From: Nostoc sp. PCC 7120 = FACHB-418
Lineage (GTDB): Bacteria; Cyanobacteriota; Cyanobacteriia; Cyanobacteriales; Nostocaceae
NCBI RefSeq assembly: GCF_000009705.1
Contig: NC_003267.1
Location: 60,001-92,000, forward strand
DNA length: 32,000 nucleotides
Direction: 5' to 3'
Each line of letters opens with the position of its first letter. The stretch's first letter is position 1. This document shows, piece after piece, positions 2-30,240 of the stretch. The notes beneath the pieces were generated by a model. That model was not told the DNA's origin. It worked only from the letters and a program-made list of their open reading frames with translations, and did no database searches. The position numbers were made by a program, and so were the translations under genes.

Positions 2-211
2 GACCAATTTGAAACTATCGACTCAACGCCCAATCCTCTTACTCACGGACAATTTTTAGGAAATTTTGGGGGAGAACTACCGGACGAAACTATTTGGAGA
101 CTTGCCCAAGGAGATGAGACAGCACTTTCTGATATTGCTGATGGTGGGACTAAACAGCAGGCTAGTGACATCTTTAACAGACTTAAGGAGCTAGGAGCAT
201 GGGAACCATAG
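2..211 (+). CDS. 3' end of an unidentified protein-coding gene (partial, 5' end outside the window)
   Basis: Frame 2 is open from the window edge for 69 codons (DQFETIDSTPNPL...RLKELGAWEP) up to TAG at 209-211. It is absent from the ORF track because it has no start codon. No recognisable motif. Confidence 0.35.
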   Translation, partial: DQFETIDSTPNPLTHGQFLGNFGGELPDETIWRLAQGDETALSDIADGGTKQQASDIFNRLKELGAWEP

Positions 212-367
212 AAGTAGTCATTAATTATATTTGTCTTAATGACGAAGCAAACGGCTTTTGTAGATATTCGCCTGAACTCACATCAAGGATTGAGATTGAT
301 GATCCGTCTTGGGATGGGTACACACAACTAGGAGTTCGCCAACCAAAAAATGCTGTCTTGTTGGTCG

Positions 368-449
368 GCAGAGGAGCAGGGGAGCAGGGGAGCAGAGGAG
401 AGATTTGTACAAGTTTCCCCCCTGCCCCTCCGCACCTCTGCCCCTCTGC
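368..449. repeat. G-rich octamer run (GGAGCAGG-like x4) followed by its C-rich complement; imperfect long hairpin or MITE-like intergenic repeat
   Basis: gcagaggagcaggggagcaggggagcagaggagag (368-402), a 14-nt loop, then cccccctgcccctccgcacctctgcccctctgc (417-449). A 9-bp perfect hairpin ccacgcaaa/tttgcgtgg follows at 456-474, and a HIP1 site at 485-492. Confidence 0.7.
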
Positions 450-597
450 TTGCCACCACGCAAAGTTTGCGTGGCGAAGCACTAGCGATCGCCTCTCCTC
501 TAGCTTGCCCTCTCCACACTCCTTTTTTCCGTGCCGACAACCACGAACGGTATTCTTTATATCTCTATGGCACTGCTATGAATTTGGAGTGTAAACC

Positions 598-1203
598 ATG
601 AACCGAACCGTAAAACTCAAACTGGATGCACCTGTCACCTATGCTGCTTTACAATCCTTAACCAACATCAGCCAAGAAACCATATTTCAAGCACTTGATG
701 GCAACGAGACAGCTGCCGCAGAGGTAGCAGATTTCCGAATCAAACAAACTCAACGCGCCCAAAATGCCAAAGCTGTATTCGGCAACTTAAACCAAGGGTT
801 ACAAGCAACTGAGGCAGTCATGGCTGAAGAAACCCAGTTTCTCACCACCGCAGGTGCAAGCATCAACAAAATGGCTGATGGTTGGTCAAAGGTCAGAGCC
901 AGCGATGCGCGTTTGGGCTATGGACTACAGCAAAAAGTTATTGCATCTGATAACCAACTAGCCCAAGAACAGTTCCGGCATGGACGGACGCTTAACCTAT
1001 TGGGGGAATCTCACCGCGCCGCCCTTAGAGTGATTGAGATTGATGCAACAAAGGCACAATCTCAGGTTTGGCAGCAGGTAAAGGATAAACAGCTTGGTCT
1101 TTCAGGAGCAGACCTAGCCAAAGAAACACTCAAGGACATTCACAGACACGGTTCTAACGCCATGCGCTCTGTGAAAGGTTTCTTTAGACGCTTGATTGAC
1201 TAA
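598..1203 (+). CDS. hypothetical protein, predicted alpha-helical, no recognisable domain
   Basis: 201-aa ORF with an ATG start, lying between two structured intergenic repeats. Same strand as the following genes. Q/A/K-rich helical composition. Confidence 0.55.
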   Translation: MNRTVKLKLDAPVTYAALQSLTNISQETIFQALDGNETAAAEVADFRIKQTQRAQNAKAVFGNLNQGLQATEAVMAEETQFLTTAGASINKMADGWSKVRASDARLGYGLQQKVIASDNQLAQEQFRHGRTLNLLGESHRAALRVIEIDATKAQSQVWQQVKDKQLGLSGADLAKETLKDIHRHGSNAMRSVKGFFRRLID

Positions 1204-1264
1204 CAAGTAAATTCCCAAGGATGAACCCTCAATACCGTTCAGCAAACAAATTTGCTCATGAGGG

Positions 1265-1392
1265 CAAGCAGGGGTGCAGGGGTGCAAGGGAGCAGAGGAG
1301 AAATCTTATACTAATTCTTCCCCTCTGCCCAATTCCTTCCCTCTACCTCTTCCTTCTCCTCTGCTCCTCTGCCCCCCCGCTCCTCTGCTGCC
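1265..1392. repeat. Second copy of the G-rich-octamer / C-rich-complement hairpin repeat
   Basis: gcaagcaggggtgcaggggtgcaagggagcagaggag (1265-1300), a loop, then a C/T-rich arm cccctctgccc...ctcctctgctcctctgcccccccgctcctctgctgcc (1320-1392). Same architecture as 368-449. Confidence 0.7.
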
Positions 1393-1465
1393 GAGAGCGA
1401 AGAGATGTCTTCACCGAACGATATTTGGTTCATCCTTGGGAATCAATCTTTACAGGGTTTGGCCA

Positions 1466-2032
1466 ATGCTGACCAAAAATGAGAAAACACCTATTTACTT
1501 CAATGCTGAGATTGTTGATGAGTCGCCTACATCTTTAACCGGGGATGAATACGACTCTCAACTCTTACAACAGGCGATCGCCTCCACTGACAGTTCTATA
1601 ACTATATTTCGTGGCATTGCCCAAGGTGCAGTTTTAGCTGGTTTTCAACTGGTTTCAACCCAATCGCTGTATCTGGCTGGCTGTGTAGGACTGTTCCCGG
1701 CAGTAGTAGCTGGTTTACCAGTAGGTGCTTCAGTAGCTGCCACTCTCTGCTACTTGCGTTTTGAAAAAAGTCTGATTCCCAAAATTACCAATCGTCAAAA
1801 GTTGGCTATTGGTGTCACTCGTACTGCAATGCTGGCTGCTAGTTCTTACAAGTTAACCGGGGATGCCCAACAGATGGACTCTATAGCCCGTGGCAGTTTT
1901 CAAGTATTTACCCAGCAGGTGAGAGAGTTTGAAGGTATTGAGCAACCTAGTCAAAATCATTTCGGCTTCTTGTTGGGGTTTTGGGTATGTGCAGCCCTGG
2001 CACTGTTTTTATTTTTACGGAAGAAGCGATGA
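1466..2032 (+). CDS. small integral membrane protein (3-4 predicted TM helices), unknown function
   Basis: In-frame ATG at 1466 (MLTKNEKTPIYF...). The upstream part of track ORF 1274..2032 is only the C-rich repeat arm. Hydrophobic segments include AVLAGFQLV..LAGCVGLFPAVVAGLPVGASVAATLCYL and a C-terminal FLLGFWVCAALALFLFLRKKR. Its stop overlaps the next start as ATGA. Confidence 0.55.
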   Translation: MLTKNEKTPIYFNAEIVDESPTSLTGDEYDSQLLQQAIASTDSSITIFRGIAQGAVLAGFQLVSTQSLYLAGCVGLFPAVVAGLPVGASVAATLCYLRFEKSLIPKITNRQKLAIGVTRTAMLAASSYKLTGDAQQMDSIARGSFQVFTQQVREFEGIEQPSQNHFGFLLGFWVCAALALFLFLRKKR

Positions 2033-3933
2033 TGAAAGATGTTAAACCGAGCCAATTAGATCAACGCTCCTACAGTCTGCCACCACGTTTAGGTTTGGTT
2101 ATTAAACTATCTGTGGCAGGTGCTTTAGTTTGTGGCATAGCTGCCCATATCGGTGACGGTATAGCCAAGAAGGACATCTGTTTCTACCCCAAATCAGCCA
2201 GAATCCACGATGCGCCCATACTCGCAGGTGAGGGTAATCCAGAAGAACTATTGCTGGGTAAAAAATATTGTCGCTACGAACAGCGATCGCAAATTCCCGA
2301 ACCATATTTGAAGGCTAACCAGTACCGCACCAGCAACCCAAACTATAACCCTTGGGCATTCCTCCAGCATGAAGGCTTGTATATATTCCGCTCACTGCCA
2401 GCCGACAATCCATTTAAGATTCATTTGGGTATTGCAGCGATCGCATTTGGAGGGATAGGTTTGTGGGCCACTAGTAAGGCACAAGATTATTTTAGTGATA
2501 TTCGACCGCATTACCGAGCTACCAAGCAATTTGAAGGTGTAAAAGCCTCTTACAGTGTCAAACTGGGTGAGCAATTGTTGGAACTATCTGGTAACGAATT
2601 GCTGAAATACTTGCGTGGTATCAAAATTGCGGAAGCCAGACAGCAGTTTATCGCCAGCATTACCCCACAACAGCAGACAGCCCTACTTATGGCGATGTCG
2701 GCTGACGATTATTATGAGTTTGGTCACTTGTTAGATGGGGGTCAAAGCTTTGAGAAATTTGAGCCACAGCAACAGCCAGCCGCACAATTACCACACGGCA
2801 CACCCGGCACTGTGCAAGAGCAAGTACAACAGTCAACGCTTGCACCTCAAGATGTACCAACAGGCGATTATCTTCACCTATCGGAGAGCGTTGCACTAAC
2901 TACTCTGCAAAGTATAGCCCGTTCTGATGGTTCTACTGCTTTAGTTGCTGCCCCAGGCTCAGGAAAATCCGTTGCCCTTGATTACCTGATTCGGAGGATT
3001 CTGGATAGTGACAATAGTGCTGATATTTGGGTCATCAGTGCCAAAAATGATAGCTTTTGTGGTTTACGGGACAAGGGTAAGGTAATTGTCTTTGATCAGG
3101 AGCAACCAGAAGCAACTAAACGCACAATTGATCACTTTTATGACTGCTACAAGCAACGTAAGCAGTTACCTGAACATAAACGGGAATCATTACCACCGTT
3201 AATTCTGATTTTGGATGATTGGTTAGTTATCGCTGACCAACTTAGTAAAGCTTTCTCGGACTGGAATTATGGAAGTAAGTTACTTGATGTCTTACTGATT
3301 GGTAGAGAGTTTAACACTAAGTTTTTTGCTTCCCTTCAGTCTTTTAATTTGGCTGCATTAGGTATTGAAAAGATGGATTCTCAAACTCGTCTCTGCCTCA
3401 ATTTACTGTTATTAGGTAACAGGTATATCAAAAATGGTAGGGAACAAGAATCTTATGGAGTGCTGGAGTTAATTTTAAATAGGGGTGACATTATCCCAGG
3501 CAAGCAAGAACGGGAAGACATTAAGTCTAGATACCTTCAGATAAAACCTATATCTTATAAAAATTTCCGTCCCATCTTGATTGCTTCTTTGGGTGGTTTT
3601 GTTGTGGCACTGATGCCTAAACTATCAAAGCAGTCCGATTCTATTGCTGATGAAATACCTTATGAGGATAGAGTTTTTGACTTAGAGTTTAATTTAGAAT
3701 TGAACGGTCAACAATTAAAACATCAACAACAATTAAGTGAAGCAGCCAATAAAGTTTTAGAATACTTCCATAATGTGAAAAATAAAGTACCTAAGACATT
3801 ACGTGATTTAAAGAAAGCTGACAGGCTTATCAGCTACTCAGAACAGGAATTAATTGCTGGTTTACAGGAATTAATTCAGGCTGAAAAGCTCTTAGCTGGT
3901 GAAAATAATACTTATTTATTACCTGATTGGTAA
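2029..3933 (+). CDS. membrane-anchored P-loop NTPase, FtsK/HerA/TraB-like (putative DNA translocase) with a C-terminal helical (possibly wHTH) tail
   Basis: ATG at 2029 overlaps the upstream TGA (ATGA). There are two N-terminal hydrophobic helices (LVIKLSVAGALVCGIAAHI and IHLGIAAIAFGGIGLWA). Walker A is AAPGSGKS (2950-2970) and Walker B is PPLILILDDW. The family assignment is by motif only. Confidence 0.6.
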   Translation: MMKDVKPSQLDQRSYSLPPRLGLVIKLSVAGALVCGIAAHIGDGIAKKDICFYPKSARIHDAPILAGEGNPEELLLGKKYCRYEQRSQIPEPYLKANQYRTSNPNYNPWAFLQHEGLYIFRSLPADNPFKIHLGIAAIAFGGIGLWATSKAQDYFSDIRPHYRATKQFEGVKASYSVKLGEQLLELSGNELLKYLRGIKIAEARQQFIASITPQQQTALLMAMSADDYYEFGHLLDGGQSFEKFEPQQQPAAQLPHGTPGTVQEQVQQSTLAPQDVPTGDYLHLSESVALTTLQSIARSDGSTALVAAPGSGKSVALDYLIRRILDSDNSADIWVISAKNDSFCGLRDKGKVIVFDQEQPEATKRTIDHFYDCYKQRKQLPEHKRESLPPLILILDDWLVIADQLSKAFSDWNYGSKLLDVLLIGREFNTKFFASLQSFNLAALGIEKMDSQTRLCLNLLLLGNRYIKNGREQESYGVLELILNRGDIIPGKQEREDIKSRYLQIKPISYKNFRPILIASLGGFVVALMPKLSKQSDSIADEIPYEDRVFDLEFNLELNGQQLKHQQQLSEAANKVLEYFHNVKNKVPKTLRDLKKADRLISYSEQELIAGLQELIQAEKLLAGENNTYLLPDW

Positions 3934-3947
3934 AGCATCTGTCGTAG

Positions 3948-4089
3948 TGCCGTAAGTTCTAGATGCTACCTTTAAGTGATTTATCCTCTTTGTACGGCAT
4001 AGTCTCAAATCACGGCATGGCTTACCAGCAAAGCATTTTAGCCTACGGCATATTTACGGCAAGTTACGGCAGGCACGAAACTCACGGCA
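3948..4089. repeat. Array of seven YACGGCA motifs (one inverted) immediately 3' of the ATPase gene; candidate protein-binding site array (clt, centromere or iteron-like)
   Basis: Motif positions are tgccgta 3948-3954 (inverted), tacggca 3993-3999, cacggca 4011-4017, tacggca 4044-4050, ttacggca 4054-4061, ttacggca 4064-4071 and cacggca 4083-4089. Three of them are spaced 10-11 bp apart. Confidence 0.75.
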
Positions 4090-4139
4090 GATATCTAGAT
4101 TGAATTAGTATTAGCTAAAAATCCCTAAATAAGAATTCA

Positions 4140-4295
4140 GAAGTCAGGAGTCAGAACTCAGTATTGATTTTAGACTACTAAGTAATGAGTACAATTTTAA
4201 AAGCTCATTTCTTGTAACTCAAATAAAATTTACTTACTTCTTGAAACTCCCATCTTTTAATAGATAGATTATTCTTAATTCTGACTCCTGACTTC
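4140..4295. repeat. Perfect 17-bp inverted repeat (gaagtcaggagtcagaa / ttctgactcctgacttc) enclosing 122 bp of AT-rich DNA
   Basis: The left arm at 4140-4156 is the exact reverse complement of the right arm at 4279-4295. It lies upstream of the 4355 CDS. The AGTCAGG tandem heptamers are typical of cyanobacterial short repeats. Confidence 0.8.
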
Positions 4296-4354
4296 CTTTT
4301 ATTACATTAATTCCTACAAATGCTTAATTAAACCCATCAAAAAAGGCATGAGTT

Positions 4355-5197
4355 ATGACAGTTTTTACAAGATTCCGTCAAGTTAATTTCTCAGCAATTG
4401 AAAGCCTTGCTCAAAATTTAAAGTCGGCGCTTCAAGAGATAGTCTCTCTAGAGAAAGATAAACAATACTTTTTTATCCAAAATGAAGCAATCTTAGTTCA
4501 CAAGCTTGTGAAAAATGCTGCTAACTCAATTAATCATTTGGTGCGTATAGATTTGGATAACCAAAAAGCTGTTGAAGTTGTCAAAACTGTAGTTAAGTAT
4601 TTACATACTGCCTATATTAGAGTTTCCAGAACTGCTGGTTATGTTGCACAGAAAGTAGAACGGTTATGGAGTGAGGCATTTAATCTGTTACCTTCAGGTA
4701 CGATAATACAGCCTGAACTGTTTGCGCCTAATGAAGTTAAATCTGTTGAAGAAAATAAAACTCCTATTCTTGGTGTTATTACCAAGTGGTTTAAGGATCA
4801 TGCTCAACGTTGGGCTTTTCAACAACAACAACAATTAGATAAACAGTATTTTGATTACATCAACAACGGTAAACCAAAGCCCCCGGTTGCAGTACAGCTA
4901 TGTCTTGATTTAGAAAGTGTTGCTCCTGCCAACCTTGTAGCCAAAATAGATGGTGATAACGGATGTTCAGAGGTTTATACTTTTGAGCAAATACACTGTT
5001 ACGGTTATCAAAAGCTGGAAGCGCTGAACAATCATACTTTAACTATCGACAGTATCAAGAATTTAACTCTACGGGCTGCGCGAAGACTGGCTAGTGAGTT
5101 GGGACTGCCTCAAAAAATCAATGGGCAGGATTTGAGAAAGGAGGCGCTGATTGCTTCTCTGCTGGACTGGTGGCAGCAGCAAGCTTACCAGTGTTGA
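4355..5197 (+). CDS. hypothetical protein with a C-terminal SAP/HeH (Rho_N-like) helix-extended-helix motif; possible DNA-binding protein
   Basis: 280-aa ORF. The C-terminus LTLRAARRLASELGLPQKINGQDLRKEALIASLL fits the L..aa.LA.elGl....G.rKeeLI..L pattern of SAP/HeH motifs. The rest is unrecognised. Confidence 0.5.
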   Translation: MTVFTRFRQVNFSAIESLAQNLKSALQEIVSLEKDKQYFFIQNEAILVHKLVKNAANSINHLVRIDLDNQKAVEVVKTVVKYLHTAYIRVSRTAGYVAQKVERLWSEAFNLLPSGTIIQPELFAPNEVKSVEENKTPILGVITKWFKDHAQRWAFQQQQQLDKQYFDYINNGKPKPPVAVQLCLDLESVAPANLVAKIDGDNGCSEVYTFEQIHCYGYQKLEALNNHTLTIDSIKNLTLRAARRLASELGLPQKINGQDLRKEALIASLLDWWQQQAYQC

Positions 5198-5521: not shown

Positions 5522-8500
5522 TTATCTCCACCATCGTGACACATCCTGAATAGCAGAAGCTGTATCTTTCATTGCTTGTTTACCACCTAAAGTAAATATC
5601 ACAGGAGTTAATGCATTTATATCACTCAGTAAATTTGGGCGAGTGTGAATAGATAAAATGTTCAAAGTATCTCGCCAGAGATCAAAAAGTGGAGTTTTTT
5701 GTATTTGTGAAAGTTTATCAGCCAAACTACTTATGGCATAGGCGCGCTTATGCGTAGACTGAATCTCCCTAGCAGCAGCCAGTGCCTCACTTAACAATTC
5801 AGGTGGCAGTAGAGTAGCCAAACTACTTAGAGTGTTGGCGCGATACTCCTCATTCTGAATCTCCCTAGCAGCAGCCAGTACCTCACTTAACAATTCAGGT
5901 GGCAGTAGAGGAGCCAAACTACTGAGGGCGTTGGTGCGATACTCCTCATTCTGAATCTCCTTAGCAGCAGCAAGTGCCTCACTTAACAATTCAGGTGGTA
6001 GTAGAGGAGCCAGACGGCTTAGGGCTTTGGCGCGATAATACTCATCCTGAATCTCCTCAGCAGCAGCTAGTGCCTCACTTAACAACTCTGGTAAGTTATC
6101 AGCCAAACTACTTAGGGTTTTGGCGCGATAATACTCATCCTGAATCTCCCTAGCAGCAGCTAGTGCCTCACTTAACAATTCAGGTGGTAGTAGAGGAGCC
6201 AGACGGCTTAGGGCTTTGGCGCGATAATACTCATCCTGAATCTCCTTAGCAGCAGCAAGTGCCTCACTTAACAATTCAGGTAGCAGTAGAGGAGCCAAAC
6301 TACGTAGGGCTTTGGCGCGATAATACTCATCCTGAATCTCCTTAGCAGCAGCAAGTGCCTCACTTAACAACTCTGGCAACTTATCAGCCAAACTACATAG
6401 GGCTTTGGCGCGATAATACTCATCCTGAATCTCCTTAGCAGCAGCAAGTGCCTCACTTAACAACTCTGGCAACTTATCAGCCAAACTACGTAGGGCATAG
6501 GCACGATAATACTCATCCTGCATCTCCCTAGCAGCAGCAAGTGCCTCTGGTAACAACTTTGGCAGTAGAGGAGCCAGACGGCTTAGGGCTTTGGCGCGAT
6601 AATACTCATCCTGAATCTCCTTAGCAGCAGCAAGTGCCTCACTTAACAATTCAGGTAGCAGTAGAGGAGCCAAACGGCTTAGGGCTAAAGCGCGATCATA
6701 CTCAGACTGAATCTCCTTAGCAGCAGCAAGTGCCTCTGGCAACAACTTTGGCAGTAGAAGAGCCAAACTACTGAGGGCTAAAGCGCGATACTCCTCATTC
6801 TGAATCTCCCTAGCAGCAGCCAGTACCTTACTTAACAATTCAGGTGGCAATTTATTAGGCAAACTACTTAGAGTGTTGGCGCGATACTCCTCATTCTGAA
6901 TCTCCCTAGCAGCAGCCAGTACCTCACTTAACAATTCAGGTGGCAATTTATTAGGCAAACTACTTAGAGTGTTGGCGCGATACTCCTCATTCTGAATCTC
7001 CCTAGCAGCAGCCAGTACCTCACTTAACAATTCAGGTGGCAGTAGAGGAGCCAAACTACTGAGGGCTAAAGCGCGATACTCTTCATCCTGAATCTGCCTA
7101 GCAGCAGCCAGTGCCTCACTTAACAATTCAGGTGGCAGTAGAAGAGCCAAACGGCTTAGGGCTAAAGCGCGATCATACTCATACTGAATCTCTCTAGCAG
7201 CAGCCAGTGCCTCTGGTAACAACTCTGGCAACTTACCAGCCCAACTACTTAGGGTTTTGGCGCGATAATACTCATCCTTAATCTGCCTAGCAGCAGCCAG
7301 TGCCTCACTTAACAATTCAGGTGGCAGTAGAGGAGCCAAACGGCTTAGGGCTAAAGCGCGATCATACTCAGACTGAATCTCTCTAGCAGCAGCAAGTGCT
7401 TCTGGCAACAACTCTGGCAGTAGAAGAGCTAAACTACTTAGAGCGTTGGCACGATTTGACTCATCCTGAAACTCCCTAGCAGCAGCCAGTGCCTCACTTA
7501 ACAATTCAGGTGGTAGTAGAGGAGCCAGACGGCTTAGGGCTTTGGCGCGATAATACTCAGACTGAAACTCCCTAGCAGCAACCAGTGCCTCACTTAACAA
7601 TTCAGCAGGCAGTAGAGGAGCTAAACTACTTAGAGCGTTGGCACGATTTGACTCATCCTGAAACTCCCTAGCAGCAGCCAGTGCCTCACTTAACAATTCA
7701 GGTGGTAGTAGAGGAGCCAAATTACTTAAAGCATAGGCGCGACCCTCCTCATCCTGAATCTCCCTAGTAGCAGCCAGTGCCTCTGGCAACAACTCTGGCA
7801 GTAGAGGAGCCAAACTACTTAGGGCTTTGGCGCGATAATACTCATCCTGAAACTCCTTAGCAGCAACCAGTGCCTCTGGCAACAACTCTGGTATTAGAGG
7901 AGCCAAACTACTTAAAGCATAGGCACGACCCTCCTCATCCTGAATCTCCCTAACAGCAGCCAGTGCCTCTGGCAACAACTCTGGCATTAGAGGAGCCAAA
8001 CTACTTAGGGCTTTGGCACGCTTATACTCATCCTGAATTTCCCTAGCAGCAGCCAGTGCCTCTGGCAACAACTCTGGCAGTAGAGGAGACAAACTACTTA
8101 GAGATCTGACGCGATTTGACTCATCCTGAATCTCCCTAGCAGTAGCCAGTGCCTTACTTAATAATTCAGGTGGCAGTAAAGGAGTTAAACTACTTAGGGC
8201 ATAGGCACGCTCTAACTCAGCTTGAATCTCCCTAGCAGCAGCAAGTGCCTCACTTAAAAACTCAGGTAGCAGTAGAGGAGCCAAACTACTTAGGGCGTTG
8301 GCGCGATTTGACTCATCCTGAATCTCCCTAGCAGCAGCCAATGCTTTCCTTAGCCCTAATTCTTTTAGGTTTGGTGGCAAATGATTGACTAGCTGTGTAA
8401 GCAAGTAGGCTTTATTTTCTGGGTTCGAGCTTTGTAGCACGTAAGCGAGTCCTTGCTGGGGAGTCCAGACATTTTTTTGAACTAACGCAATCAACAGTTG

Positions 8501-9967
8501 GGCTGGTAAATTAGCTGCCAGACTATTAAGGGATGCAATAATCAAAGCATAGCGACATTGCATCCCAATGACTTCAGGTAGGGATGTAAGAGTCCAGGAG
8601 CCTTCTGCCGATTGCCAAGCACGAGCAATATCAGTTACAAAATTGGCAGTTTGCCCCAAGCTCGCGCACGCTTCATACCAACCATTACCGCCTGCTGAAG
8701 TTTCCTCTTGTAAAAGTTGATGTATCTGATTTAATTGGTTCGCTTGCTGGAAATGCCAAGTTAAATGAGCATGAATATAATCATCAGCAGGTAATGTATG
8801 CCATTGCCCTGATTGAGTTTTTTCTTGATAACGGTCTAATAACGCCGAATGAGCAACAGTCAAACTGAATCCCAGTCCTGGTAGTTTTCCTGGTTGATTA
8901 GGAACTTTCTCTCCTATAAGTAATCCAATAGCTACATCGTGCATTAAGTCATGTAGCCTGTAAGTTGGTTTTTTGTCAAACTGTATTGTTCCCGTTTGCA
9001 GTAATGCTTTAGACCGTAATTGACGTAATATTGTCAAAGCTTGTCTAGGATTAACACCCCAAAGCGTTGCCGCCATTGCATGGGTAATAACCACATCTTC
9101 TGGTAAAACTCCAAACCAAGCAAATTGTTGTAATAATTCTGGAGTTAAAGAATTCAAGCTGAGATTAAAAGAAGCTACCAGAGAATACTTTTTGCGCTTT
9201 TCTTCACTACTACAATCTACAAACAAGTCAAGTGTATCTAAATGAGCTATTTCTGCCTTTAAATCTTTTAGCAATTCTTCCCAGGCTATTCCATCTGCTC
9301 GCTGCGCTGCTGCCAATTCTAACGCTAAGGGTAAATAACCAACCGTTTCTGCTAAAAGTTCCGCCTGCTGTTTTTCTGCTTGGGTAAATTGCTTCAGATG
9401 TGGTTGACTTTCTAGAAGCTTTAGCGATTCGCTCTTTGTCATCACGTCCAGATCATAGCGGCTTGCCGCTAGTATCACAGCCTCTCGTGTAGTTACAAGT
9501 ACCCGACAACCAGCACCACCTACTTGAAAATATTCAACGTGTTCCGGATTCCAAGCGTCATCTACCACCAGCAAAACTTTCTTATCATAAAGTAAGGTCT
9601 GCAAGTGTCTTTTTGCATCATCTGATTGAATGGGTTTATAGTTATTGTCTCCTAAAGCCAGAATCCAACTACTTAATAATGGCAACAAATCAGGTTTTTG
9701 ACCTAAAGTAGCCCACAAAACCCCATCTTTAAAATAAGCTTGAACCTCATTATCATGGGCTATAGCCGCAGCTAATGTTGATTTACCAATTCCACCTAAT
9801 CCATAAATGGCACTAACAACTAAAGTTCCTTGACTATTTGTTTCTTGCCCCAGTAAAACTGCTTTTACTGCTTCATGGTGTAAGGGACGTTCTACAAAAT
9901 TAATTGGTAAAGGTGGTGCTTGGAAAGGTTTTTCTAACTTTACCCGTTCTCCAACGGGCGGCTGTAG
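5522..9967 (-). CDS. NB-ARC (AP-ATPase/STAND) NTPase with helical linker and 28 tandem HEAT/ARM-like repeats. The reading frame is open up to the in-frame TGA at 9968-9970 and has no canonical start before the P-loop.
   Basis: Motifs are P-loop GLGGIGKST (9776-9802), Walker B KKVLLVVDDAW, RVLVTTRE, GLPL motif GYLPLALELAAA and MHD motif RLHDLMHDVA. These are followed by 28 copies of EALAAAREIQDEYYRAKALSSLAPLLPPELLS. The track ORF (9718) starts at a TTG after the P-loop, but the frame is open upstream to 9967. Confidence 0.85.
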   Translation of the reverse strand, partial: LQPPVGERVKLEKPFQAPPLPINFVERPLHHEAVKAVLLGQETNSQGTLVVSAIYGLGGIGKSTLAAAIAHDNEVQAYFKDGVLWATLGQKPDLLPLLSSWILALGDNNYKPIQSDDAKRHLQTLLYDKKVLLVVDDAWNPEHVEYFQVGGAGCRVLVTTREAVILAASRYDLDVMTKSESLKLLESQPHLKQFTQAEKQQAELLAETVGYLPLALELAAAQRADGIAWEELLKDLKAEIAHLDTLDLFVDCSSEEKRKKYSLVASFNLSLNSLTPELLQQFAWFGVLPEDVVITHAMAATLWGVNPRQALTILRQLRSKALLQTGTIQFDKKPTYRLHDLMHDVAIGLLIGEKVPNQPGKLPGLGFSLTVAHSALLDRYQEKTQSGQWHTLPADDYIHAHLTWHFQQANQLNQIHQLLQEETSAGGNGWYEACASLGQTANFVTDIARAWQSAEGSWTLTSLPEVIGMQCRYALIIASLNSLAANLPAQLLIALVQKNVWTPQQGLAYVLQSSNPENKAYLLTQLVNHLPPNLKELGLRKALAAAREIQDESNRANALSSLAPLLLPEFLSEALAAAREIQAELERAYALSSLTPLLPPELLSKALATAREIQDESNRVRSLSSLSPLLPELLPEALAAAREIQDEYKRAKALSSLAPLMPELLPEALAAVREIQDEEGRAYALSSLAPLIPELLPEALVAAKEFQDEYYRAKALSSLAPLLPELLPEALAATREIQDEEGRAYALSNLAPLLPPELLSEALAAAREFQDESNRANALSSLAPLLPAELLSEALVAAREFQSEYYRAKALSRLAPLLPPELLSEALAAAREFQDESNRANALSSLALLLPELLPEALAAAREIQSEYDRALALSRLAPLLPPELLSEALAAARQIKDEYYRAKTLSSWAGKLPELLPEALAAAREIQYEYDRALALSRLALLLPPELLSEALAAARQIQDEEYRALALSSLAPLLPPELLSEVLAAAREIQNEEYRANTLSSLPNKLPPELLSEVLAAAREIQNEEYRANTLSSLPNKLPPELLSKVLAAAREIQNEEYRALALSSLALLLPKLLPEALAAAKEIQSEYDRALALSRLAPLLLPELLSEALAAAKEIQDEYYRAKALSRLAPLLPKLLPEALAAAREMQDEYYRAYALRSLADKLPELLSEALAAAKEIQDEYYRAKALCSLADKLPELLSEALAAAKEIQDEYYRAKALRSLAPLLLPELLSEALAAAKEIQDEYYRAKALSRLAPLLPPELLSEALAAAREIQDEYYRAKTLSSLADNLPELLSEALAAAEEIQDEYYRAKALSRLAPLLPPELLSEALAAAKEIQNEEYRTNALSSLAPLLPPELLSEVLAAAREIQNEEYRANTLSSLATLLPPELLSEALAAAREIQSTHKRAYAISSLADKLSQIQKTPLFDLWRDTLNILSIHTRPNLLSDINALTPVIFTLGGKQAMKDTASAIQDVSRWWR
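5711..8347 (-). repeat. Coding tandem repeat, 28 units of 93-96 bp (31-32 aa), many units near-identical at DNA level
   Basis: The period is visible directly. For example, tcctgaatctccttagcagcagcaagtgcctcacttaacaa recurs about every 94 bp, and 6841-6936 is essentially repeated at 6935-7030 (protein units 15 and 16 are identical). Confidence 0.9.
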
Positions 9968-10384
9968 TCAAGTATGGTAGTTATGAGTGTGATGACCACC
10001 GATGTTTGTTGTACCTTTTTCAGTCTCTACTTTAGTTTGGTAGCCCGTACTGTTGTCATAGTTATTTTGGGTCATGTTGCTGTTGTCTAACAGTTTTCCC
10101 ACATTAATCTCTTGCGCCAGTGCTTGTACCTGGGAAGCAAATTGTGGCTCGTCATCCATCACATCTTGTAAATAGACTGCTAGACGCTCTAACTCTGACT
10201 TATTTCCTTGTTCAACCGCAGTTAGTGCTTTTTCTGCTCTTGGATTACCTCGTAACTTATTCCAAATTTTCTGACGTAACTCATCCATCTTCACAAGGGC
10301 TGCTTCAGTGAATTTCTCTATTGTCGTCTCAAAAGCTTTAGTAAAAGCAAGAGTAACGATTACACCAGCAGTAAGTGGTTCCAT
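9968..10384 (-). CDS. N-terminal module of the NLR-like gene (138 aa): hydrophobic first helix, helical bundle and N/Q/G/T/H-rich tail. It ends at a TGA in frame with the NB-ARC ORF.
   Basis: ATG at 10384 is preceded by GAGG 6 nt upstream. Sequence runs MEPLTAGVIVTLAFTKAFETTIEKF...DNSNMTQNNYDNSTGYQTKVETEKGTTNIGGHHTHNYHT. The stop TGA at 9968-9970 is in the same frame as 5522..9967. Confidence 0.65.
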   Translation of the reverse strand: MEPLTAGVIVTLAFTKAFETTIEKFTEAALVKMDELRQKIWNKLRGNPRAEKALTAVEQGNKSELERLAVYLQDVMDDEPQFASQVQALAQEINVGKLLDNSNMTQNNYDNSTGYQTKVETEKGTTNIGGHHTHNYHT

Positions 10385-11076
10385 GTACAACCTCATCAGC
10401 ACAGGATTCTATTAATTTATTACCACATATCTTCTGCTCTTAATTCCGCATTCCGCTAATGGGCTATTTCGTGTAATGAGGCCACGCAATGATCGTAGTT
10501 TTACATCCTCTTAGCTTTGCATTATTTATACTACATTTGTATTACAAAATCCTTAAATAAAAAATAAGATACCCTTATCTTTTATACGATGAAAACTACG
10601 ATTAAAACCGAGGATTCTTGACAACACCGATTTTCGGACATCTTCTGTCCGTTGCTGACTTATAGAATGTAGCTAAAGTCTTTACGGGAAATTCAGGGGA
10701 TATGGCTGGGCGTTTACCTATACTTCTAGCCCACATCTTATATTAGCTGTTCTTTATCATTAGTATCTGCATTTTGGTTAATACTTTACATAACGTATCA
10801 ATCTGCACGGTTTGCCTTGCTTCACATTGCATCTAGGTAATGTTAACTTATCGTTTAAGTAAGTTAAGACTGCAACCATCTTTCCCTTGGGCTAAAGGAC
10901 GATAGCCCTTGCACCTCTGTTTTAGTGAGCGCGGCAGAATTAGCATTTTGTCTTTTAGAGGTTTGGTTCACTAAGCTTTATGTATTAATCAGGGGAAACG
11001 CACCTTATTTCCTAACAAAAACTAATCAGGATTTCAAAATTATTTATGTAAGTGCAAAACTTGACACAAAGATAAA

Positions 11077-12443
11077 CAGAACAAATCGATTCTTTTGCTA
11101 ATACGTAAATTAGCTTATCTCTAATGAAATAACTGTTGTCTAAGGGTAAATTAGTTAACTATTTAGCCATGAGTAAGTAAGCTTATCCCTAAAAATAAGC
11201 AACAATCATAACTAAATTATTGATAGGCTAGTTTACGCTAAAGCTAGAACTCTTTCTAAATATTTATTGTCCATTGCTGCCAGAAACTGTTTATTTTTGA
11301 TTCCCCGTTTCACACGCTTCTCTTTACCTAAAAGATTTACTGCTATCTGCCGCATTACTGCAAAATTTTGTGGAGCATTATCTTTCCTAATCCGGCAGTC
11401 ATCTTCTTTTAAAGCTACATCTAATATCCAATGCAATGAATTTTCTATTCCCCAGTGACTGCGAACAGAATTAGCAAATTGTTTGGCATTATCTTCAAGA
11501 CTACTAATAAAATAACGAATCTCCACTGTTGTTTTAGCATCTACTTGCCGGACGGATTCTACCATCCCAATACTATTAAACTTTGACCAAGCTGAATCAG
11601 GGTCAAGTCGGGATTAGATTCCTGTTAACATCGCGTAGTTGCGGATTTCATGACGACCATGCCCATGTTCTTCTGTTTTGTATGTGCTATGTTGAAAATC
11701 TTGAAAACCTTTGCCTATCTCTGCTTTAAATAGTTGCTCTACTTCATCATACAGATTACCTTGATTCTTTTTGAGGGTAATTACATAATCTGCGTTTTGT
11801 TGGCTAATTAACTTCACAATCTCCTTCTGGCAACCGATGGCATCAATTGTCACAATACAACCAGATAGTTCTAATACTTTTATTAATTCGGGAATTGCTG
11901 TAATTTCATTTGATTTCTCATCCACCTTTACCTGCCCTAACACTAACTTATTTGTAGTTGCCCACGCACTTACCATTTGTATTGCACTTTGGTTACTGCT
12001 TCTATCATGGGAGCCACATAAAGTTTTGCCGTCAATTGCTACTACCTCACCATCCGTCCTGATCTTTATTGACTTTATCCAGTTTAAGAAACATGACTGA
12101 AATTGCTGTGAATCCAATTGTGCAAAGACTCGTGCAAATGTATCGTGTGATGGTATTCCATTTGGTAGCTCCAAAAACGTTTTCAACCACTCATATTTTG
12201 TGCAGCCATACAATTCAATTGCCACCCAACTGTCCGCTCCACATATCACTGCACATAAAGCAATGGTGAGAATGTCAATTAATTTGTGCCGTTTTGTCCG
12301 ATCTACTCTTGGATCTTCCATCTGTGCAAAGTGGTCAGTAATCGTGATTTTGGGCTTGAGCTTCATGAAGAGAGTGGTACGGTAGTTCTTCTTTTTTTCT
12401 CGCACTCTTGAATTTACTACAAAAATGAACCCACATTGCCCTG
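11077..12443 (-). mobile_element. ISAs1-family insertion sequence (ends tentative)
   Basis: It contains the ISAs1/H-repeat-type transposase. The right end ...cattgccctg (12443) gives the CAGGG terminus I recall for ISAs1. The imperfect partner is cagaacaaatcgattcttttgctaatacgtaaatt at 11077-11111, against cagggcaatgtgggttcatttttgtagtaaatt. No target duplication was found. Confidence 0.4.
11233..12366 (-). pseudogene. ISAs1-family (H-repeat-associated) DDE transposase, inactivated by one in-frame TAA
   Basis: Sequence reads MKLKPKITITDHFAQMEDPRVDRTKRHKLIDILTIALCAVICGADSW...IPSHDTFARVF, then RSHWGIENSLHWILDVALKEDDCRIRKDNAPQNFAVMRQIA. The two track ORFs (11614..12405 and 11233..11565) are in the same frame and are separated only by TAA at 11614-11616. 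Confidence 0.8.
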
Positions 12444-15048: not shown

Positions 15049-15868
15049 ATTAATTTCAATATTATCAGTTAATCTCGCTATATATACAGATTACTACCAT
15101 TGTAGATTTACCGAAGAAGAATTCAGAATACATCTCTCATAAAATATTTTCAGAGTGAATCTTCACAAATCAAAATCGAGAGTAAATGTATCATCATCAG
15201 GTTTTTCTGATGTTTGAGGTATAACGGTAACCAGATACCACCTGAGTCACAACGCGCAATTATTACTGAGACGAAAGCAAATATTAAGATGAACTACCCC
15301 TGGCTACTTCGTTGAGCCAGGGGTTTCTACATCCCCTAGCGTAGCCTGAGATTTTTGACGTTTCCTTTGACCCAGTTGCTTCATGCTTCCCGCAGTTTTG
15401 CGGGTACGTGAAGTAGAGCTAGAATCATCTACGCCTTCGAGACTCGTTCCAAATCCCGGTAGTCTTCCTGAGTGCCAAAGCAACATAACCTCGCCAGAAG
15501 CGATGTCACGCTGCTGAGTGTAGTTACAATTAGAGCAAATATGCACTCTCTGGTCTAAAGTTTTCTTTTCCTGATGCCCACATTTAGGGCAAGTTTGTGA
15601 TGGTTTTATCTTCTTAGTTGGTGCTTCAGAAAACACACCACTAAAATCATCCAACTTAGCCTTGAGGGATTGTTTTATCATCCCCATACCAACATCAAGA
15701 ATTGATTTGTTCAGACCAGATTTTTGCTTCTTGCGTTTACCCTTTTTAGCTTTGGCACTCATATTTTTGACTTCTAGTTGTTCAGTTACCACCGTGCTAT
15801 TACCGCTAATTATTCGTGTAGTAACTTGATGAACCCAGTTCTGACGCTGATTAGCTACTTTTCTATAT

Positions 15869-17181
15869 GAGAACTCCACAAAAAAGATGATCCAATAGCT
15901 ATGCTGGTTTAGCAAAAATTTCCACAAACCATTTTTTGAGATTGGGGAGGCGGTTAATCTGGGTTTCAATTTCTTCCATAGCTGAAGTTGTAAGTTTAAC
16001 TCCTGTGGAGTAAACTTTTTCTACCAGTGTGACAACCGGATTTTTACCCTTAAATGTGAGAGTTTGGGCGAAATTCAGTACGGTCTCAACGGTGTCAAGT
16101 AAACTACCATTCCAATGCTGTTCTAACCAACCAAAGCAACGTTCTATTGGGTTGTATTTGCTATGATACGGCGGATAATAAGCAAGTTGTAACGTCAGTT
16201 GAGATGATGTGCTAAAATCTACAACCCGCTTCATAAACTGAGTGCGACGAGAATGATTTTCCGGTCCATTATCTTGATTAATTACCAGTTTTTGAATATG
16301 AGCAAATCGGTGTTTGACATTTTGCCACCAGCTTTCAAGCAAGTCAACAATACAATCAGCAGTTAATTTGGAAGAAACGAAAAATAAAAATAACTCGTTG
16401 TACTCAGGTATAAAAATGCCGTAGGGAATCAGAGTCATCTCGGTCGGAAAGTCGTGGTCTAATGAGGTAGTTGGGATTCGAGTTTTACCACCTCGGTCAA
16501 ACTCTCCAATCTTGACTGCCACCTTCGCATCAATGGAGATCCGGAGAGTATGAGGGTCATTATCAGCTTCAGTATTAATTTGCTCGACTTGTTCAAAAAT
16601 GGCTTCTGTTTCTGGAATCTTCTTGATAGGCTTGGTTTTCAGAACTCGTTTTAAGGTATAACCCAAATCATTCAATCGTCGTCGAATTGTCTCTGATGAA
16701 GGTAGTTCTTTGTCACTGTAACCAAATTGTTCAATTAGTTGACGACGTACAACACTTGCCGTCATGCGTGTATATAAGCGTGTACTCTTAAAACTGGGGT
16801 CAGTTTGAGTTTGTGGGTCTACTAACGATTTAATATCCTCCAACAAGTTTGGTAATTTTGTTTCCACCCGCTTACGTCCACTACGCTCAAAACCATCAAT
16901 AAAAGGCTTGCCACTCTCCAACTCCTGCATCCCTTTACGGATAGTACGCCTATTCCATCCCAACTCGCGTTCTACTAAAGTCTGTCCACCAATTCCCAAA
17001 CCTTTGACCACTTCTGCCATGAATTGTCGTCGGTCGCTTCCCTTGAGTTTTTTCGCTGTTTTGATGTAAAGAGATTTTAGGTTCTCTGTGAGTTGAATGA
17101 TAGATTTTGGAGACATGAGGTAGGCTGCACACTGAAATTATCTTTCTCTGATCATAGGATCAATCATTCTGTGCAGTTCTC
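15869..17181 (-). mobile_element. IS630-superfamily / ISAzo13-like insertion sequence nested inside tnpB
   Basis: Terminal inverted repeats are (t)gagaactccacaaaaaagatgatcc at 15868/9 onward, against the reverse complement of 17181 downward, gagaactgcacagaatgattgatcc. It is flanked by TA (or TAT) on both sides (15866-15867 and 17182-17183). About 1.31 kb with a single transposase ORF. Confidence 0.85.
15899..17116 (-). CDS. DDE transposase, IS630 superfamily / ISAzo13-like
   Basis: 405-aa intact ORF with an N-terminal HTH region. DDE-region motifs are ISIDAKVAVKIGEF, VINQDNGPENHS and YYPPYHSKYNPIERCFGWLEQHW. Confidence 0.85.
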   Translation of the reverse strand: MSPKSIIQLTENLKSLYIKTAKKLKGSDRRQFMAEVVKGLGIGGQTLVERELGWNRRTIRKGMQELESGKPFIDGFERSGRKRVETKLPNLLEDIKSLVDPQTQTDPSFKSTRLYTRMTASVVRRQLIEQFGYSDKELPSSETIRRRLNDLGYTLKRVLKTKPIKKIPETEAIFEQVEQINTEADNDPHTLRISIDAKVAVKIGEFDRGGKTRIPTTSLDHDFPTEMTLIPYGIFIPEYNELFLFFVSSKLTADCIVDLLESWWQNVKHRFAHIQKLVINQDNGPENHSRRTQFMKRVVDFSTSSQLTLQLAYYPPYHSKYNPIERCFGWLEQHWNGSLLDTVETVLNFAQTLTFKGKNPVVTLVEKVYSTGVKLTTSAMEEIETQINRLPNLKKWFVEIFAKPA

Positions 17182-18009
17182 TATAACTTACTAATCCGCG
17201 ATTGAACTTTCTTCCATCTCCTAGAAGCTTTCTGTCTTTTCTTGTAATTAGGTGAACGCTTACGACGTTTGGCTTTACTTAATTGTTTGATTTTCTTCTC
17301 TGCATTCCTAAAAAATCTAGGGGCAGAAATTAACCCGTTTTCTTCTCCGTTAGTCCAAGCAATTGCATCATTGCAACCCAAATCAATTGCAACCACACCA
17401 CTATCTGTTTTACGGCTACTTCTCAGCATCTCATCATCTACATCCAAAACTATAGATGCGTACCATTTACCATTGCGGTGAACTATGTCTAGTGCTTTGG
17501 GATGACCCCACAACCTAGACTTACCCCGCATTTGTATAGAACCAATCTTAGCTAGTTCTAGATAGCCGTTATCGCCTGTACTATGACATTTCCATCCTGT
17601 AAAAGATGGGTAGCTCCAACCAGAATAGCGGCGAATTGATTTGAATTTAGGATAACCACCTAGACCTTTGAAGAAACGTTGGAATGCTAAATCAACACGT
17701 TTTAATGTTGATTGCAATGATTGGGAATTTATTTGTTTATATTCAGTCCAAACTTCCTTAAAATCTGGTAGGCAATTTTGTTGATCAAAGTACGAAACTG
17801 ACTTACCAAATTTCTTGTAAGACGTAATTCTATTAGACACTGCGGCATTGTAGAGTTCTTTATGAAGTCTCCGGTGATAGTGCAATAAATCATTCACTTT
17901 CTTGGTTGGATATAACCTAAAAGTTGCTCTACGCAATGCCACTAAATATCACCCCCTGTAGTAATCAAGACTCATGGTATAGTACCATTGGTGAAATTCA
18001 GTTGTCAAC

Positions 18010-18432
18010 ATGAAAACTCAGTTTAGAAAAGCGTCCCATGCTGTTTTTAGCATTCACTTACACGTTGTACTTATTGCCAAATATCGTAAAGAAGTTATTA
18101 CACAGGAAATACTTGTTAAGTTACAAGAAGTATTCAACCGTGTTTGCGAGAAACGTAAATGCTTGCTTACTGAGTTTAGTGGCGAAGACAACCATGTGCA
18201 TTTGTTGATAGACGTGCATCCTGACAACAATATTTCACAGCTAATTGGTTCACTCAAATCAGCATCAAGTCGCATTATTAGAAAAGAGTTTCAAGATTAT
18301 CTAAAACAATATTATTGGAAAGAGAAAGACCCTAGTTTTTGGACTGATGCCTACTCTGTCAATTCAGTGGGTGGCGCACCGCTAGAAATAGTCAAAGAAT
18401 ATATCCGTTCTCAGGACAAACCCGAAAGATAA
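18010..18432 (+). CDS. tnpA: IS200/IS605-family Y1 (HUH) transposase TnpA
   Basis: 140 aa, with HUH motif NHVHLLIDV and catalytic-Tyr region FWTDAYSVNSVGG. This is the typical size and layout. Confidence 0.9.
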   Translation: MKTQFRKASHAVFSIHLHVVLIAKYRKEVITQEILVKLQEVFNRVCEKRKCLLTEFSGEDNHVHLLIDVHPDNNISQLIGSLKSASSRIIRKEFQDYLKQYYWKEKDPSFWTDAYSVNSVGGAPLEIVKEYIRSQDKPER

Positions 18433-22890: not shown

Positions 22891-23535
22891 TTATGATGCG
22901 TCAGATATTACTTGACCAATACGCTTGAGAATCTGCAAAATATTGTAGAGTTCTTTGACAGATGTAAACAAAGCAAACACCCGTGACAAGTCATATTGTG
23001 GTGTGCCTGCTTCTCGCTTTACTTTGATAAATAGAACATCGTCCCCATTCGTTACCATCCCAAACACAGGTTTATCTGGTTGAGGGTTAGCCATTAGATA
23101 AGCTAGGGCTTGCGGTACAGCCGACCAAATCGAAAGTGTGGTTTTTTTAGACTCTAATACCATCACCCACAACTGATTTTGTAGTATCAAAACATCAATC
23201 CGACCACGCAGCACTTCCTCGCCATCATCCAGTACTAAATCCACAGATGATTCTGCTTTAATCCTGAATGGTGGATCGTAAAATCCAGACAGTGCTAGTA
23301 ACGGCGACACCACTAGCAACATGACTGTTCCTTCTAATAAATCACCTTCACCACGGTGGTATAGATATCTGCGTCGCAGTACATCCAGGGACGCTTTTTC
23401 TGCTTCCGTAATTTCGGGTAGTTCACTCTTCCACTCTGGGAAAAAATCCTCTGACTCAATGCGGACTAAACCAAAGCGGGTTAGAGCTTCACTCAAACTG
23501 GTAATCGCTTCTGTGATTGCTGTTACCTGTGTCAT
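22891..23535 (-). CDS. PD-(D/E)xK nuclease-fold protein, HsdR N-terminal-domain-like (stand-alone)
   Basis: 214 aa. GRIDVLIL...WVMVLESKK supplies a D...E-x-K signature in the expected strand context. The family is common as solitary genes in cyanobacteria. Confidence 0.6.
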   Translation of the reverse strand: MTQVTAITEAITSLSEALTRFGLVRIESEDFFPEWKSELPEITEAEKASLDVLRRRYLYHRGEGDLLEGTVMLLVVSPLLALSGFYDPPFRIKAESSVDLVLDDGEEVLRGRIDVLILQNQLWVMVLESKKTTLSIWSAVPQALAYLMANPQPDKPVFGMVTNGDDVLFIKVKREAGTPQYDLSRVFALFTSVKELYNILQILKRIGQVISDAS

Positions 23536-30185: not shown

Positions 30186-30240
30186 TAGTAAACCCTGGTA
30201 AATCAATGAAGCCAAAAGTCGGAAGTTAGACTTTTTATGG

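Follow-up and report, generated by a model that had tools for sequence, protein, structure and literature searches.

Within a 32,000-nucleotide stretch of Nostoc sp. PCC 7120 (contig NC_003267.1, positions 60,001 to 92,000; hereafter the window, to which all coordinates refer), a giant NLR-like gene lies on the minus strand at 5522-10402 and is interrupted by a single in-frame stop codon. We suggest that this locus is probably an immune or cell-death module with two products, of the Bell/amyloid-motif/NLR kind, in which a small effector ends at the stop codon and a large sensor would be made by programmed UGA readthrough. The gene anatomy, the domain identities, the conservation of the stop codon, its context, a predicted downstream hairpin and the reading frame, and the lack of an own start codon or effector motif in the sensor were all computed directly.

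The in-frame stop codon and its surroundings

The minus-strand translation of 5522-10402 comprised 1627 codons with exactly one internal stop, a TGA at 9968-9970, besides the terminal stop. The initial annotation had read this frame as a single tripartite gene with a TGA to be repaired. The gene with its NB-ARC domain, motifs, 28 repeats and lone in-frame TGA was found where it had been placed, and the succession of a helical N-module, an NB-ARC STAND module and a long solenoid sensor stood. The single open reading frame (ORF) did not, since the TGA is the conserved stop of a separate protein of 138 amino acids (aa). The start implied at GTG 10402 was not upheld either, as homologues point most likely to ATG 10384 (MEPLT...).

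The ORF upstream of the TGA, queried from ATG 10384, had 283 homologues, nearly all of 134-150 aa and matched over their full length, and the identical 138-aa protein was present on 23 contigs (P0121). Because these homologues stand alone and end at the same position, the TGA is the natural stop of the family and no lesion. Judged from its homologues, the N-terminal module is a separate, widespread 138-aa protein. The small effector gene (9968..10384, minus strand, 138 codons and the TGA) was also called as a separate 138-aa gene in a second, draft assembly (GCA_014696775.1). Identity to the locus was 99.99% for a draft contig and 100% for a protein fragment. A search of a plasmid collection gave no match to the locus.

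The sensor frame (5522..9967, minus strand, 1481 codons and a stop) follows the effector stop with a gap of 0 nt on the same strand; it shares the reading frame of the effector and is open immediately behind the TGA. A scan between the effector and sensor parts detected no terminator, and no promoter beyond chance. The first ATG, GTG or TTG of the sensor frame was a TTG at 9718, already past the P-loop. No such codon precedes the P-loop in the window or in one other locus (L064).

We compared 80 genome loci encoding relatives of the small effector protein. In 41 of them (class A) the partner gene had its own start codon and lay in any of the three frames (13/2/26). The effector tail motif recurred within the first 160 residues of the partner in 39 of these 41 loci (z 3.5-32 against shuffles, all but one above 6), and class A is thus the canonical amyloid-signalling pair. 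Close relatives of the window effector (L015, L038 and others) show this arrangement in textbook form, the motif being present on effector and NLR alike. A further 35 loci, including the window, formed class B, where every partner lay in frame 0 and ran open behind the stop for as many as 1481 codons. None of the 35 class-B partners carried the effector motif (z about 0); in the window, comparing the tail with the 160 aa that follow the stop gave a z of -0.9. Here the motif would be placed on the NLR solely through a readthrough fusion.

No start codon after the stop, whether canonical or ATT, was conserved across the 35 class-B loci. Other class-B loci had ATG, GTG or TTG codons scattered without a common position, often just 5-14 codons ahead of the P-loop. 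As the sensor has no start codon of its own, it is probably made solely via readthrough of the stop. Directly behind the stop, the linker LQPPVGERVKLEKPFQAPPLP (9908..9967, minus strand) follows a pattern, L[QEK]S[SP]E.ER[AT]K.NPP, that is conserved at the same position in other loci. One homologue, P0016 (L115 551-3523), is naturally fused and runs from a Bell-like domain through the linker into NB-ARC; the tail motif and the stop are exactly what it is missing. It has kept the linker without the stop and its hairpin is degraded. The existence of this fused protein indicates that the fusion architecture is viable. The ORF downstream of the stop is in frame, is conserved, bears the signature of coding sequence and lacks its own start, as expected of readthrough.

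The stop and its context (TGA CTA CAG, 9962..9970, minus strand) were conserved across the 35 class-B loci and 45 distinct junctions. TGA was the stop in 31 of the 35 loci, and TAG or TAA in the other four; a C followed directly in 34, a CTN codon in 34, and NAG as the second codon in 31. When junctions were collected with a relaxed pattern, all 45 distinct ones were preceded by TGA and none by a sense codon, which suggests that both products are needed. UGA is the leakiest stop codon and UGA-C a weak termination context in bacteria (PMC5289835), while UGA-CUA is the type II readthrough motif of viruses (PMC13517186). The stop is therefore both conserved and placed in a favourable 3′ context.

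A predicted RNA hairpin begins 9 nt past the stop, behind an 8-nt spacer (9942..9959, minus strand). In the window it has a 7-bp stem (GCCCGUU/AACGGGU) and a GGAG loop (RNAfold, -11.1 kcal/mol). The consensus was GCCCG-N8-CGGGC, with its start at +12 from the U of UGA, which is also where the readthrough stimulators of MoMLV, VEEV and CTFV begin (PMC13517186). Over the 36 nt after the stop, class-B loci had a mean folding energy of -8.1 kcal/mol, compared with -4.3 for synonymous re-encodings under local codon usage and -1.9 for class A. In an alignment of 35 sequences (A2), 87.4% of cells were paired against 79.9% in column shuffles (0 of 500 reached the observed value), and pairing fell to 7-39% when the partner was slid by 1-3 columns. 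Covariation was seen at one pair (CG in 17, UA in 12), and another showed G-C inversions. Three loci (L050, L052, L057) encoded a different peptide (SSESASDK) and retained a hairpin one register over. Among 19 distinct sequences from one sensor clade, the third codon positions were the most conserved within the hairpin (entropy 0.62/0.44/0.22 for positions 1/2/3). In the same set the normal coding pattern resumed from codon 11 (0.76/0.72/1.04), ahead of any start codon.

The junction was not restricted to one pair of proteins. Scanning metagenomes with the junction DNA recovered 29 loci, 28 of which had an in-frame extension of at least 113 codons. Across all loci, at 60% identity, the junction of about 45 nt joined modules of at least 11 clusters upstream with modules of at least 25 clusters downstream. 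Upstream modules comprised several Bell-like subfamilies with differing tails and one alpha/beta-hydrolase; downstream modules included NB-ARC with TPR, NB-ARC with the window-type repeat, NACHT and protein kinase. On balance, these sequence comparisons tip towards filamentous cyanobacteria using a portable recoding cassette, made of UGA-CUA and a hairpin at an 8-nt spacing, that would yield a free effector and a rare sensor in which effector and motif are fused to an NLR, kinase or NACHT protein. Such a cassette would replace the duplicated motif, fix the ratio of the products, keep the motifs matched and permit module shuffling, and it would represent convergence on viral type II signals.

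At one locus (L100 683-1951) the TGA and hairpin junction stood behind an alpha/beta-hydrolase-like module of about 300 aa instead of a Bell-like effector, so the cassette is not bound to one effector type. In Fischerella sp. PCC 9431 (L003 3688-5109) a diversity-generating retroelement (bAvd and reverse transcriptase) was found beside a gene of the FGE-sulfatase fold and directly upstream of a class-B locus with an effector, TGA and protein kinase.

Effector and sensor domains

The effector N-terminus, MEPLTAGVIVTLAF, has an acidic residue at position 2 followed by a hydrophobic helix 1. As published, Bell domains are helical effectors about 100 aa long, acidic at residue 2-3 and hydrophobic in their first helix; a C-terminal BASS motif of about 25 aa follows the domain, and in filamentous bacteria the effector genes occur in pairs with NLR genes (10.1101/2020.01.06.895854). 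The "MEPIS"-type N-terminus occurs in Bell, Hell and Bab domains, including the experimentally characterised Bab effector (bioRxiv 10.1101/2024.11.07.622273; see also 10.1101/2020.01.06.895854). The Bell-like domain (aa 1-99; 10088..10384, minus strand) has such an N-terminus, and the AlphaFold2 model of the effector contained five helices (residues 6-18, 27-44, 48-58, 63-78 and 80-95; mean pLDDT 71). Residues 100-138 were disordered in the model (pLDDT<50). They include the tail (aa 104-138; 9971..10075, minus strand), MTQNNYDNSTGYQTKVETEKGTTNIGGHHTHNYHT, which is rich in G, N and Q and resembles a BASS motif. Its core, MTQNNYDNSTGYQTKVE..GTTNIGG.H.H, was conserved family-wide (alignment A1), and canonical relatives had the same motif again at the N-terminus of their adjoining NLR (z 6-32). 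The N-terminal motif, size, helical prediction and gene pairing together suggest that the N-module is a Bell-like helical effector of pore-forming type with an amyloid-signalling-like tail. In Pfam, only weak DUF7607 matches were obtained, in 9 of 28 family members. Foldseek of the effector model against the PDB returned nothing at E<1, so a fold-level tie to Bab or HeLo could not be shown.

Met104 of the effector (10073-10075), which opens the tail motif, hardly varied within the family and, when aligned with canonical pairs, corresponded to the residue at which their motif-bearing NLRs initiate. Met104 could serve as an internal start or be left over from the origin of the arrangement.

The sensor part contains an NB-ARC nucleotide-binding domain (9257..9874, minus strand) with a score of 74.7 bits against a cut-off of 23.5 (PF00931, E=9.2e-21), which bore out the NB-ARC/AP-ATPase STAND assignment of the translation. 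The sequence of this NOD region matched the solved structures of AfsR (8e-20), Apaf-1 (5.7e-13) and plant NLRs. All five motifs quoted in the initial annotation were present, in the correct order and on the minus strand: GLGGIGKST (P-loop/Walker A, 9776-9802, aa 56-64 of the extension), LLVVDDAW (Walker B, 9551-9574, aa 132-139), RVLVTTRE (RNBS-B/sensor 1, 9482-9505, aa 155-162), GYLPLAL (GLPL, 9320-9340, aa 210-216) and, beyond the NB-ARC domain, LHDLMHDV (MHD, 8933-8956, aa 338-345). The helical region between the MHD motif and the repeats (8348..8932, minus strand) was conserved in homologues and matched PF17908 (APAF-1 helical domain) weakly, at 18.3 bits and under the cut-off of 22.8. The closest homologue of the NOD, P0001, was 82% identical and differed in its N-terminal arrangement. 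NCBIfam gave only sub-threshold matches on the sensor, from TPR families that contain NB-ARC.

The repeats occupy 5720..8344 on the minus strand. Tandem Repeats Finder reported a period of 96 and 27.7 copies over 5720-8344, and we counted 28 units of 31 or 32 aa, as the initial annotation had. They had also been called near-identical, which overstates their similarity: nucleotide matches were 82% in Tandem Repeats Finder and mean pairwise identity was about 70% for protein and 77% for DNA, with one adjacent pair at 100%. As claimed, the sensor is not of the TPR, WD40 or LRR type, as Pfam scans gave no such match and an alpha-solenoid was predicted. In the AlphaFold2 model of the last 8 repeats pLDDT was above 90 and each unit formed a helix pair of 14 and 12 residues. 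With Foldseek the solenoid was most similar to the PP2A A subunit (template modelling score 0.65, TMq), and also to Pumilio, SF3B1 and VPS35. The helix-turn-helix units of the model are those of a HEAT solenoid, and by predicted fold the repeats are a HEAT-like solenoid. The 28 repeats and their predicted alpha-solenoid also provide the C-terminal repeat sensor that is typical of NLR-like proteins.

In sequence searches with the repeats, HEAT and ARM profiles gave nothing significant at E up to 10 (best HEAT_EF3_GNC1, E=0.47), Pfam and NCBIfam had no matching model, and a PDB sequence search found only designed repeat proteins at marginal E-values. A word-indexed homologue search returned mostly short fragments at contig ends and was uninformative. 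At E<=1e-3 an exhaustive search recovered 4,339 representative clusters, of which 906 remained at E<=1e-30; most were proteins of 1000-3200 aa. Five repeat-bearing hits were sampled; four were of STAND type (NB-ARC in two, NACHT, AAA_16) and one was a KAP P-loop NTPase. The view that the repeat class is uncharacterised thus holds in that no Pfam model or natural PDB sequence matched it, but with 4,339 clusters it is widespread and not a new class.

Per-column entropy over the 28 units placed the variable positions at 11, 13, 14, 17 and 24, that is, at the start and along one face of the longer helix. Internally conserved NLR repeats with few variable positions are a described pattern (10.1101/2020.01.06.895854), and the distribution suggests that the variable stripe of the solenoid is a ligand-binding surface. 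The C-terminal cap (LSQIQKTPLF...DVSRWWR; 5525..5719, minus strand) was conserved in P0016, P0003 and P0018 and modelled with low AlphaFold2 confidence.

The draft assembly GCA_014696775.1 departs from the window at 8581-8586, exactly where the helical region ahead of the repeats starts; 213 bp later the draft contig breaks off (L001 11319-11532). The protein annotated at that break (P0002) has 444 aa and ends in ...TLTSREA. This divergence is most likely assembly breakage at the repeats. Such breakage would explain why many homologues are annotated as partial.

Genomic neighbourhood

Several insertion sequence (IS) elements were found near the locus, as noted before. An IS4-like transposase (DDE_Tnp_1 and DDE_Tnp_1_assoc) at 11233-12405 was split into ORFs of 110 and 263 aa and is probably frameshifted or decayed. 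An element of the IS200/IS605 type spans 15304-18432, with its Y1 TnpA at 18010-18432. Its TnpB is split into a C-terminal part (15304-15969) and an N-terminal part (17181-17942) by an ISAz013-type DDE transposase gene (15899-17116). In the draft assembly the same ISAz013 copy adjoins an operon for ubiquitin-like conjugation (ThiF/JAB/E2) instead. Since this copy has a different neighbour in the draft, the two assemblies differ beyond window position 17186.

Upstream of the locus and past the IS elements lie DJ-1 and F420-oxidoreductase genes, then a ResIII helicase partly similar to type IV restriction models (20213-22258) and an HSDR_N/PD-(D/E)xK-like ORF (22891-23535). The helicase and nuclease of the initial annotation are therefore present, but 10-13 kb off. 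Its case for a "typical defence island" is weak: the immediate neighbours were IS debris, a GNAT acetyltransferase and a GHL10 hydrolase, with no recognised defence system adjacent. The surroundings are a mobile-element-rich region without a recognisable defence island.

Downstream, five plus-strand ORFs (199-5197; 131, 201, 252, 650 and 280 aa) had no match in Pfam, NCBIfam or PADLOC save one weak mad8. GC content was 47% over the first 3 kb of the window and 35-36% over the next 2 kb. The non-coding stretch upstream of the locus (10540-10879) was about 86% identical to unannotated DNA on several Nostocales plasmids (Trichormus variabilis, Nostoc sp. MS1), and may be a dispersed repeat, a miniature inverted-repeat transposable element or a conserved regulatory region. 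Further along, 25722-30215 encodes a 1497-aa right-handed beta-helix protein (Beta_helix, NosD), in which two opposite-strand ORFs of 121 aa, 1014 bp apart, suggest long internal DNA repeats. No tRNA genes were found in the window.

Alternative explanations, related systems and proposed mechanism

One alternative is a pair of ordinary genes. The sensor would then be initiated at a non-canonical or internal start or by termination-reinitiation, and the hairpin would be a standby, processing or other regulatory element. The NCBI (PGAP) annotation does start the sensor at an ATT (P0002 begins MNFVERPL), the purine-rich hairpin loops (GGAG, GGGGAA) are Shine-Dalgarno-like, and collinear Bell/NLR pairs are thought to be co-transcribed (10.1101/2020.01.06.895854). 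However, the ATT of the window is missing from other loci and no start is conserved across the 35. Independent initiation also leaves unexplained why class-B partners are universally in frame 0 and open from the stop when own-start partners use three frames, and why coding-type substitution sets in directly after the hairpin. The resulting sensor would lack a motif with which to contact the effector. We regard this alternative as rather unlikely. Another view is that the junction is mainly a site of recombination or cassette exchange, whose hairpin serves DNA or RNA recombination and not translation. Its joining of at least 11 effector and 25 sensor clusters fits this, as do its nucleotide conservation above that of the flanking coding sequence and the different N-terminal arrangement of P0001 despite an 82% identical NOD. 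But neither the translation of the sensor nor the strict stop in a leaky context would be explained, and exchange as the main role seems improbable. A part of the junction in module shuffling is plausible as a complement to readthrough, and is no alternative to it.

That the locus is a pseudogene, a single tripartite NLR ORF killed by a nonsense mutation, could be read from the lone TGA in an otherwise open 1626-codon frame and from the IS-rich surroundings. The same stop position in hundreds of small homologues argues against it, as do the intact downstream frames of hundreds of codons in 35 and 28 loci and the identical sequence in an independent assembly. Moreover, an open frame of 1481 codons would not persist unselected in an AT-rich genome, and we give this explanation hardly any credence. 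Equally far-fetched is a UGA recoded as selenocysteine, or a stop bypassed by the ribosome. A hairpin directly past the UGA is generally known from the bacterial selenocysteine insertion sequence (SECIS). SECIS recoding is confined to UGA, however, and four class-B loci have TAG or TAA; the codon also sits in a disordered linker. No Rfam family, SECIS included, matched the junction at E up to 10, and a survey of selenium use names cyanobacteria just for orphan SelD (PMC5029168). For bypassing, no matching take-off and landing codons were evident. Frameshifting was excluded because effector and sensor lie in the same frame.

Several observations weigh against programmed readthrough in an immune module, and the evidence for readthrough is comparative throughout. 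We know of no precedent, beyond SECIS, for hairpin-stimulated UGA readthrough on a bacterial chromosome. At 5 bp in most loci, the conserved stem is short; RNAalifold found no consensus structure in the junction alignment, and several loci (among them L013 and L051) lack the stem and still keep the in-frame arrangement. The covariation may stem from few independent events, as the shuffle controls ignore phylogeny. TAG and TAA, used at four of the 35 loci, are less leaky stops. Profile or fold support for the Bell identity of the N-domain was not obtained, and PADLOC had no match for the sensor, the NOD alone or the effector. Phage defence is a candidate role. Natural UGA readthrough in bacteria has been reported at just 1-6% (PMC13517186).

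The closest known systems are the Bell/BASS-NLR pairs (Dyrka et al., bioRxiv 10.1101/2020.01.06.895854). They share with the locus a helical effector (about 100 aa, acidic at residue 2-3, first helix hydrophobic), a G/N/Q-rich C-terminal motif of about 25-35 aa, a filamentous cyanobacterial host, and an NB-ARC NLR with internally conserved repeats directly downstream on the same strand. Unlike these pairs, the NLR here has no motif or start of its own and lies in frame behind a stop in the context of UGA-CUA and a hairpin. Stop codons and readthrough are not mentioned by Dyrka et al. (10.1101/2020.01.06.895854), and class B would have been missed there because pairs were defined by motif duplication. 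Bab/Agp of E. coli also combines a small Bell-related effector, with a "MEPIS"-type N-terminus and a C-terminal amyloid motif, with an adjacent sensor that activates it; Bab/Agp is an antiphage cell-death (abortive infection) system by experiment (bioRxiv 10.1101/2024.11.07.622273). However, it consists of two conventional separate genes and its Babybell domain is shorter, at about 80 aa. The initial annotation had likened the locus to Avs/bNACHT sensors. The tripartite logic of effector, NOD and sensor is indeed shared, and some members bear the same MEPIS-type N-terminus (bioRxiv 10.1101/2024.11.07.622273). The likeness failed in other respects, as the NOD is NB-ARC and not NACHT or Avs-type STAND, the N-module is Bell-like and no PADLOC model matches the locus. 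With a Bell-like effector and an amyloid-signalling-like tail as its N-module, the locus falls in with the Bell/BASS-NLR systems of filamentous bacteria.

Apaf-1, plant CC-NLRs and AfsR have an NB-ARC domain with P-loop, Walker B, RNBS-B, GLPL and MHD motifs and significant sequence similarity to the locus. They differ in that the locus has 28 HEAT-like repeats in place of WD40, LRR or TPR, and an effector that is also released free. Plant CC-NLR resistosomes carry an N-terminal helical effector of membrane type, in the placement that it would have in the fused product. Fungal HET-S/NWD2 and HeLo/HELL "all-in-one" NLRs likewise have internally conserved repeats with few variable positions, and realise either a two-gene amyloid relay or a single effector-NOD-repeat polypeptide, whereas the cyanobacterial frame would yield both architectures. 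For the stop itself, the nearest parallels are viral: UGA followed by CUA in the type II signals of Sindbis, ONNV and PSIV, a structure behind an 8-nt spacer (+12) in MoMLV, VEEV and CTFV, and, as in the UGA readthrough of the Q-beta coat/A1 protein, a short abundant and a long rare product with a shared N-terminus (PMC13517186). These belong to eukaryotic viruses or an RNA phage, in contrast to bacterial chromosomal genes of immune type with a short hairpin, known from sequence.

Under programmed readthrough, ribosomes would initiate at ATG 10384 and mostly terminate at the TGA (9968-9970) to give the free 138-aa effector. A minority would pass the UGA, favoured by the leaky UGA-C/CUA context and the hairpin 9 nt downstream, with decoding probably by a near-cognate tRNA such as tRNA-Trp. 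These ribosomes would add 1481 codons and produce a rare 1620-aa fusion of effector, motif, linker, NB-ARC, 28-repeat solenoid and cap, the sensor, with the predicted junction peptide ...GTTNIGGHHTHNYHT-W-LQPPVGER. In a possible variant, readthrough combined with an internal start at Met104 would give a motif-NLR protein without the Bell domain. Once a ligand meets the variable solenoid face, the NB-ARC domain may oligomerise as in Apaf-1 and plant NLRs. The oligomer would cluster the N-terminal motifs, nucleate an amyloid fold and template the abundant free effector, whose converted Bell domain would damage the membrane and cause cell death. Readthrough would keep the sensor scarce relative to the effector, and a mismatch between the two motifs could not arise because one DNA copy serves both. 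Readthrough, how efficient it is, the templating of amyloid, the attack on the membrane and the ligand are inferred, and immunity or cell death is the most reasonable reading of the locus.

Bell/BASS-NLR pairs, bacterial NB-ARC proteins and internally conserved repeats were already known. What appears undescribed is the conserved stop in frame, together with its context and hairpin. We found no mention of readthrough at such loci in the founding Bell/BASS-NLR papers or in searchable related work. To our knowledge, programmed readthrough is well documented in viruses and eukaryotes, with almost no cases in bacterial chromosomal genes outside selenocysteine. Gene callers and defence finders split or mis-start such genes, so surveys probably undercount and misdescribe the class. 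If the proposed readthrough is true, it would explain why many Bell-domain genes stand without a partner bearing the motif, and why many NLR genes are annotated with odd starts, as pseudogenes or as partial. It would also resolve, in a simple way, two questions in the design of amyloid signalosomes: how much sensor is made per effector, and how the two motif copies evolve in step. A readthrough cassette in dozens of cyanobacterial NLR-type loci would then be a new mode of expression for bacterial immune sensors.

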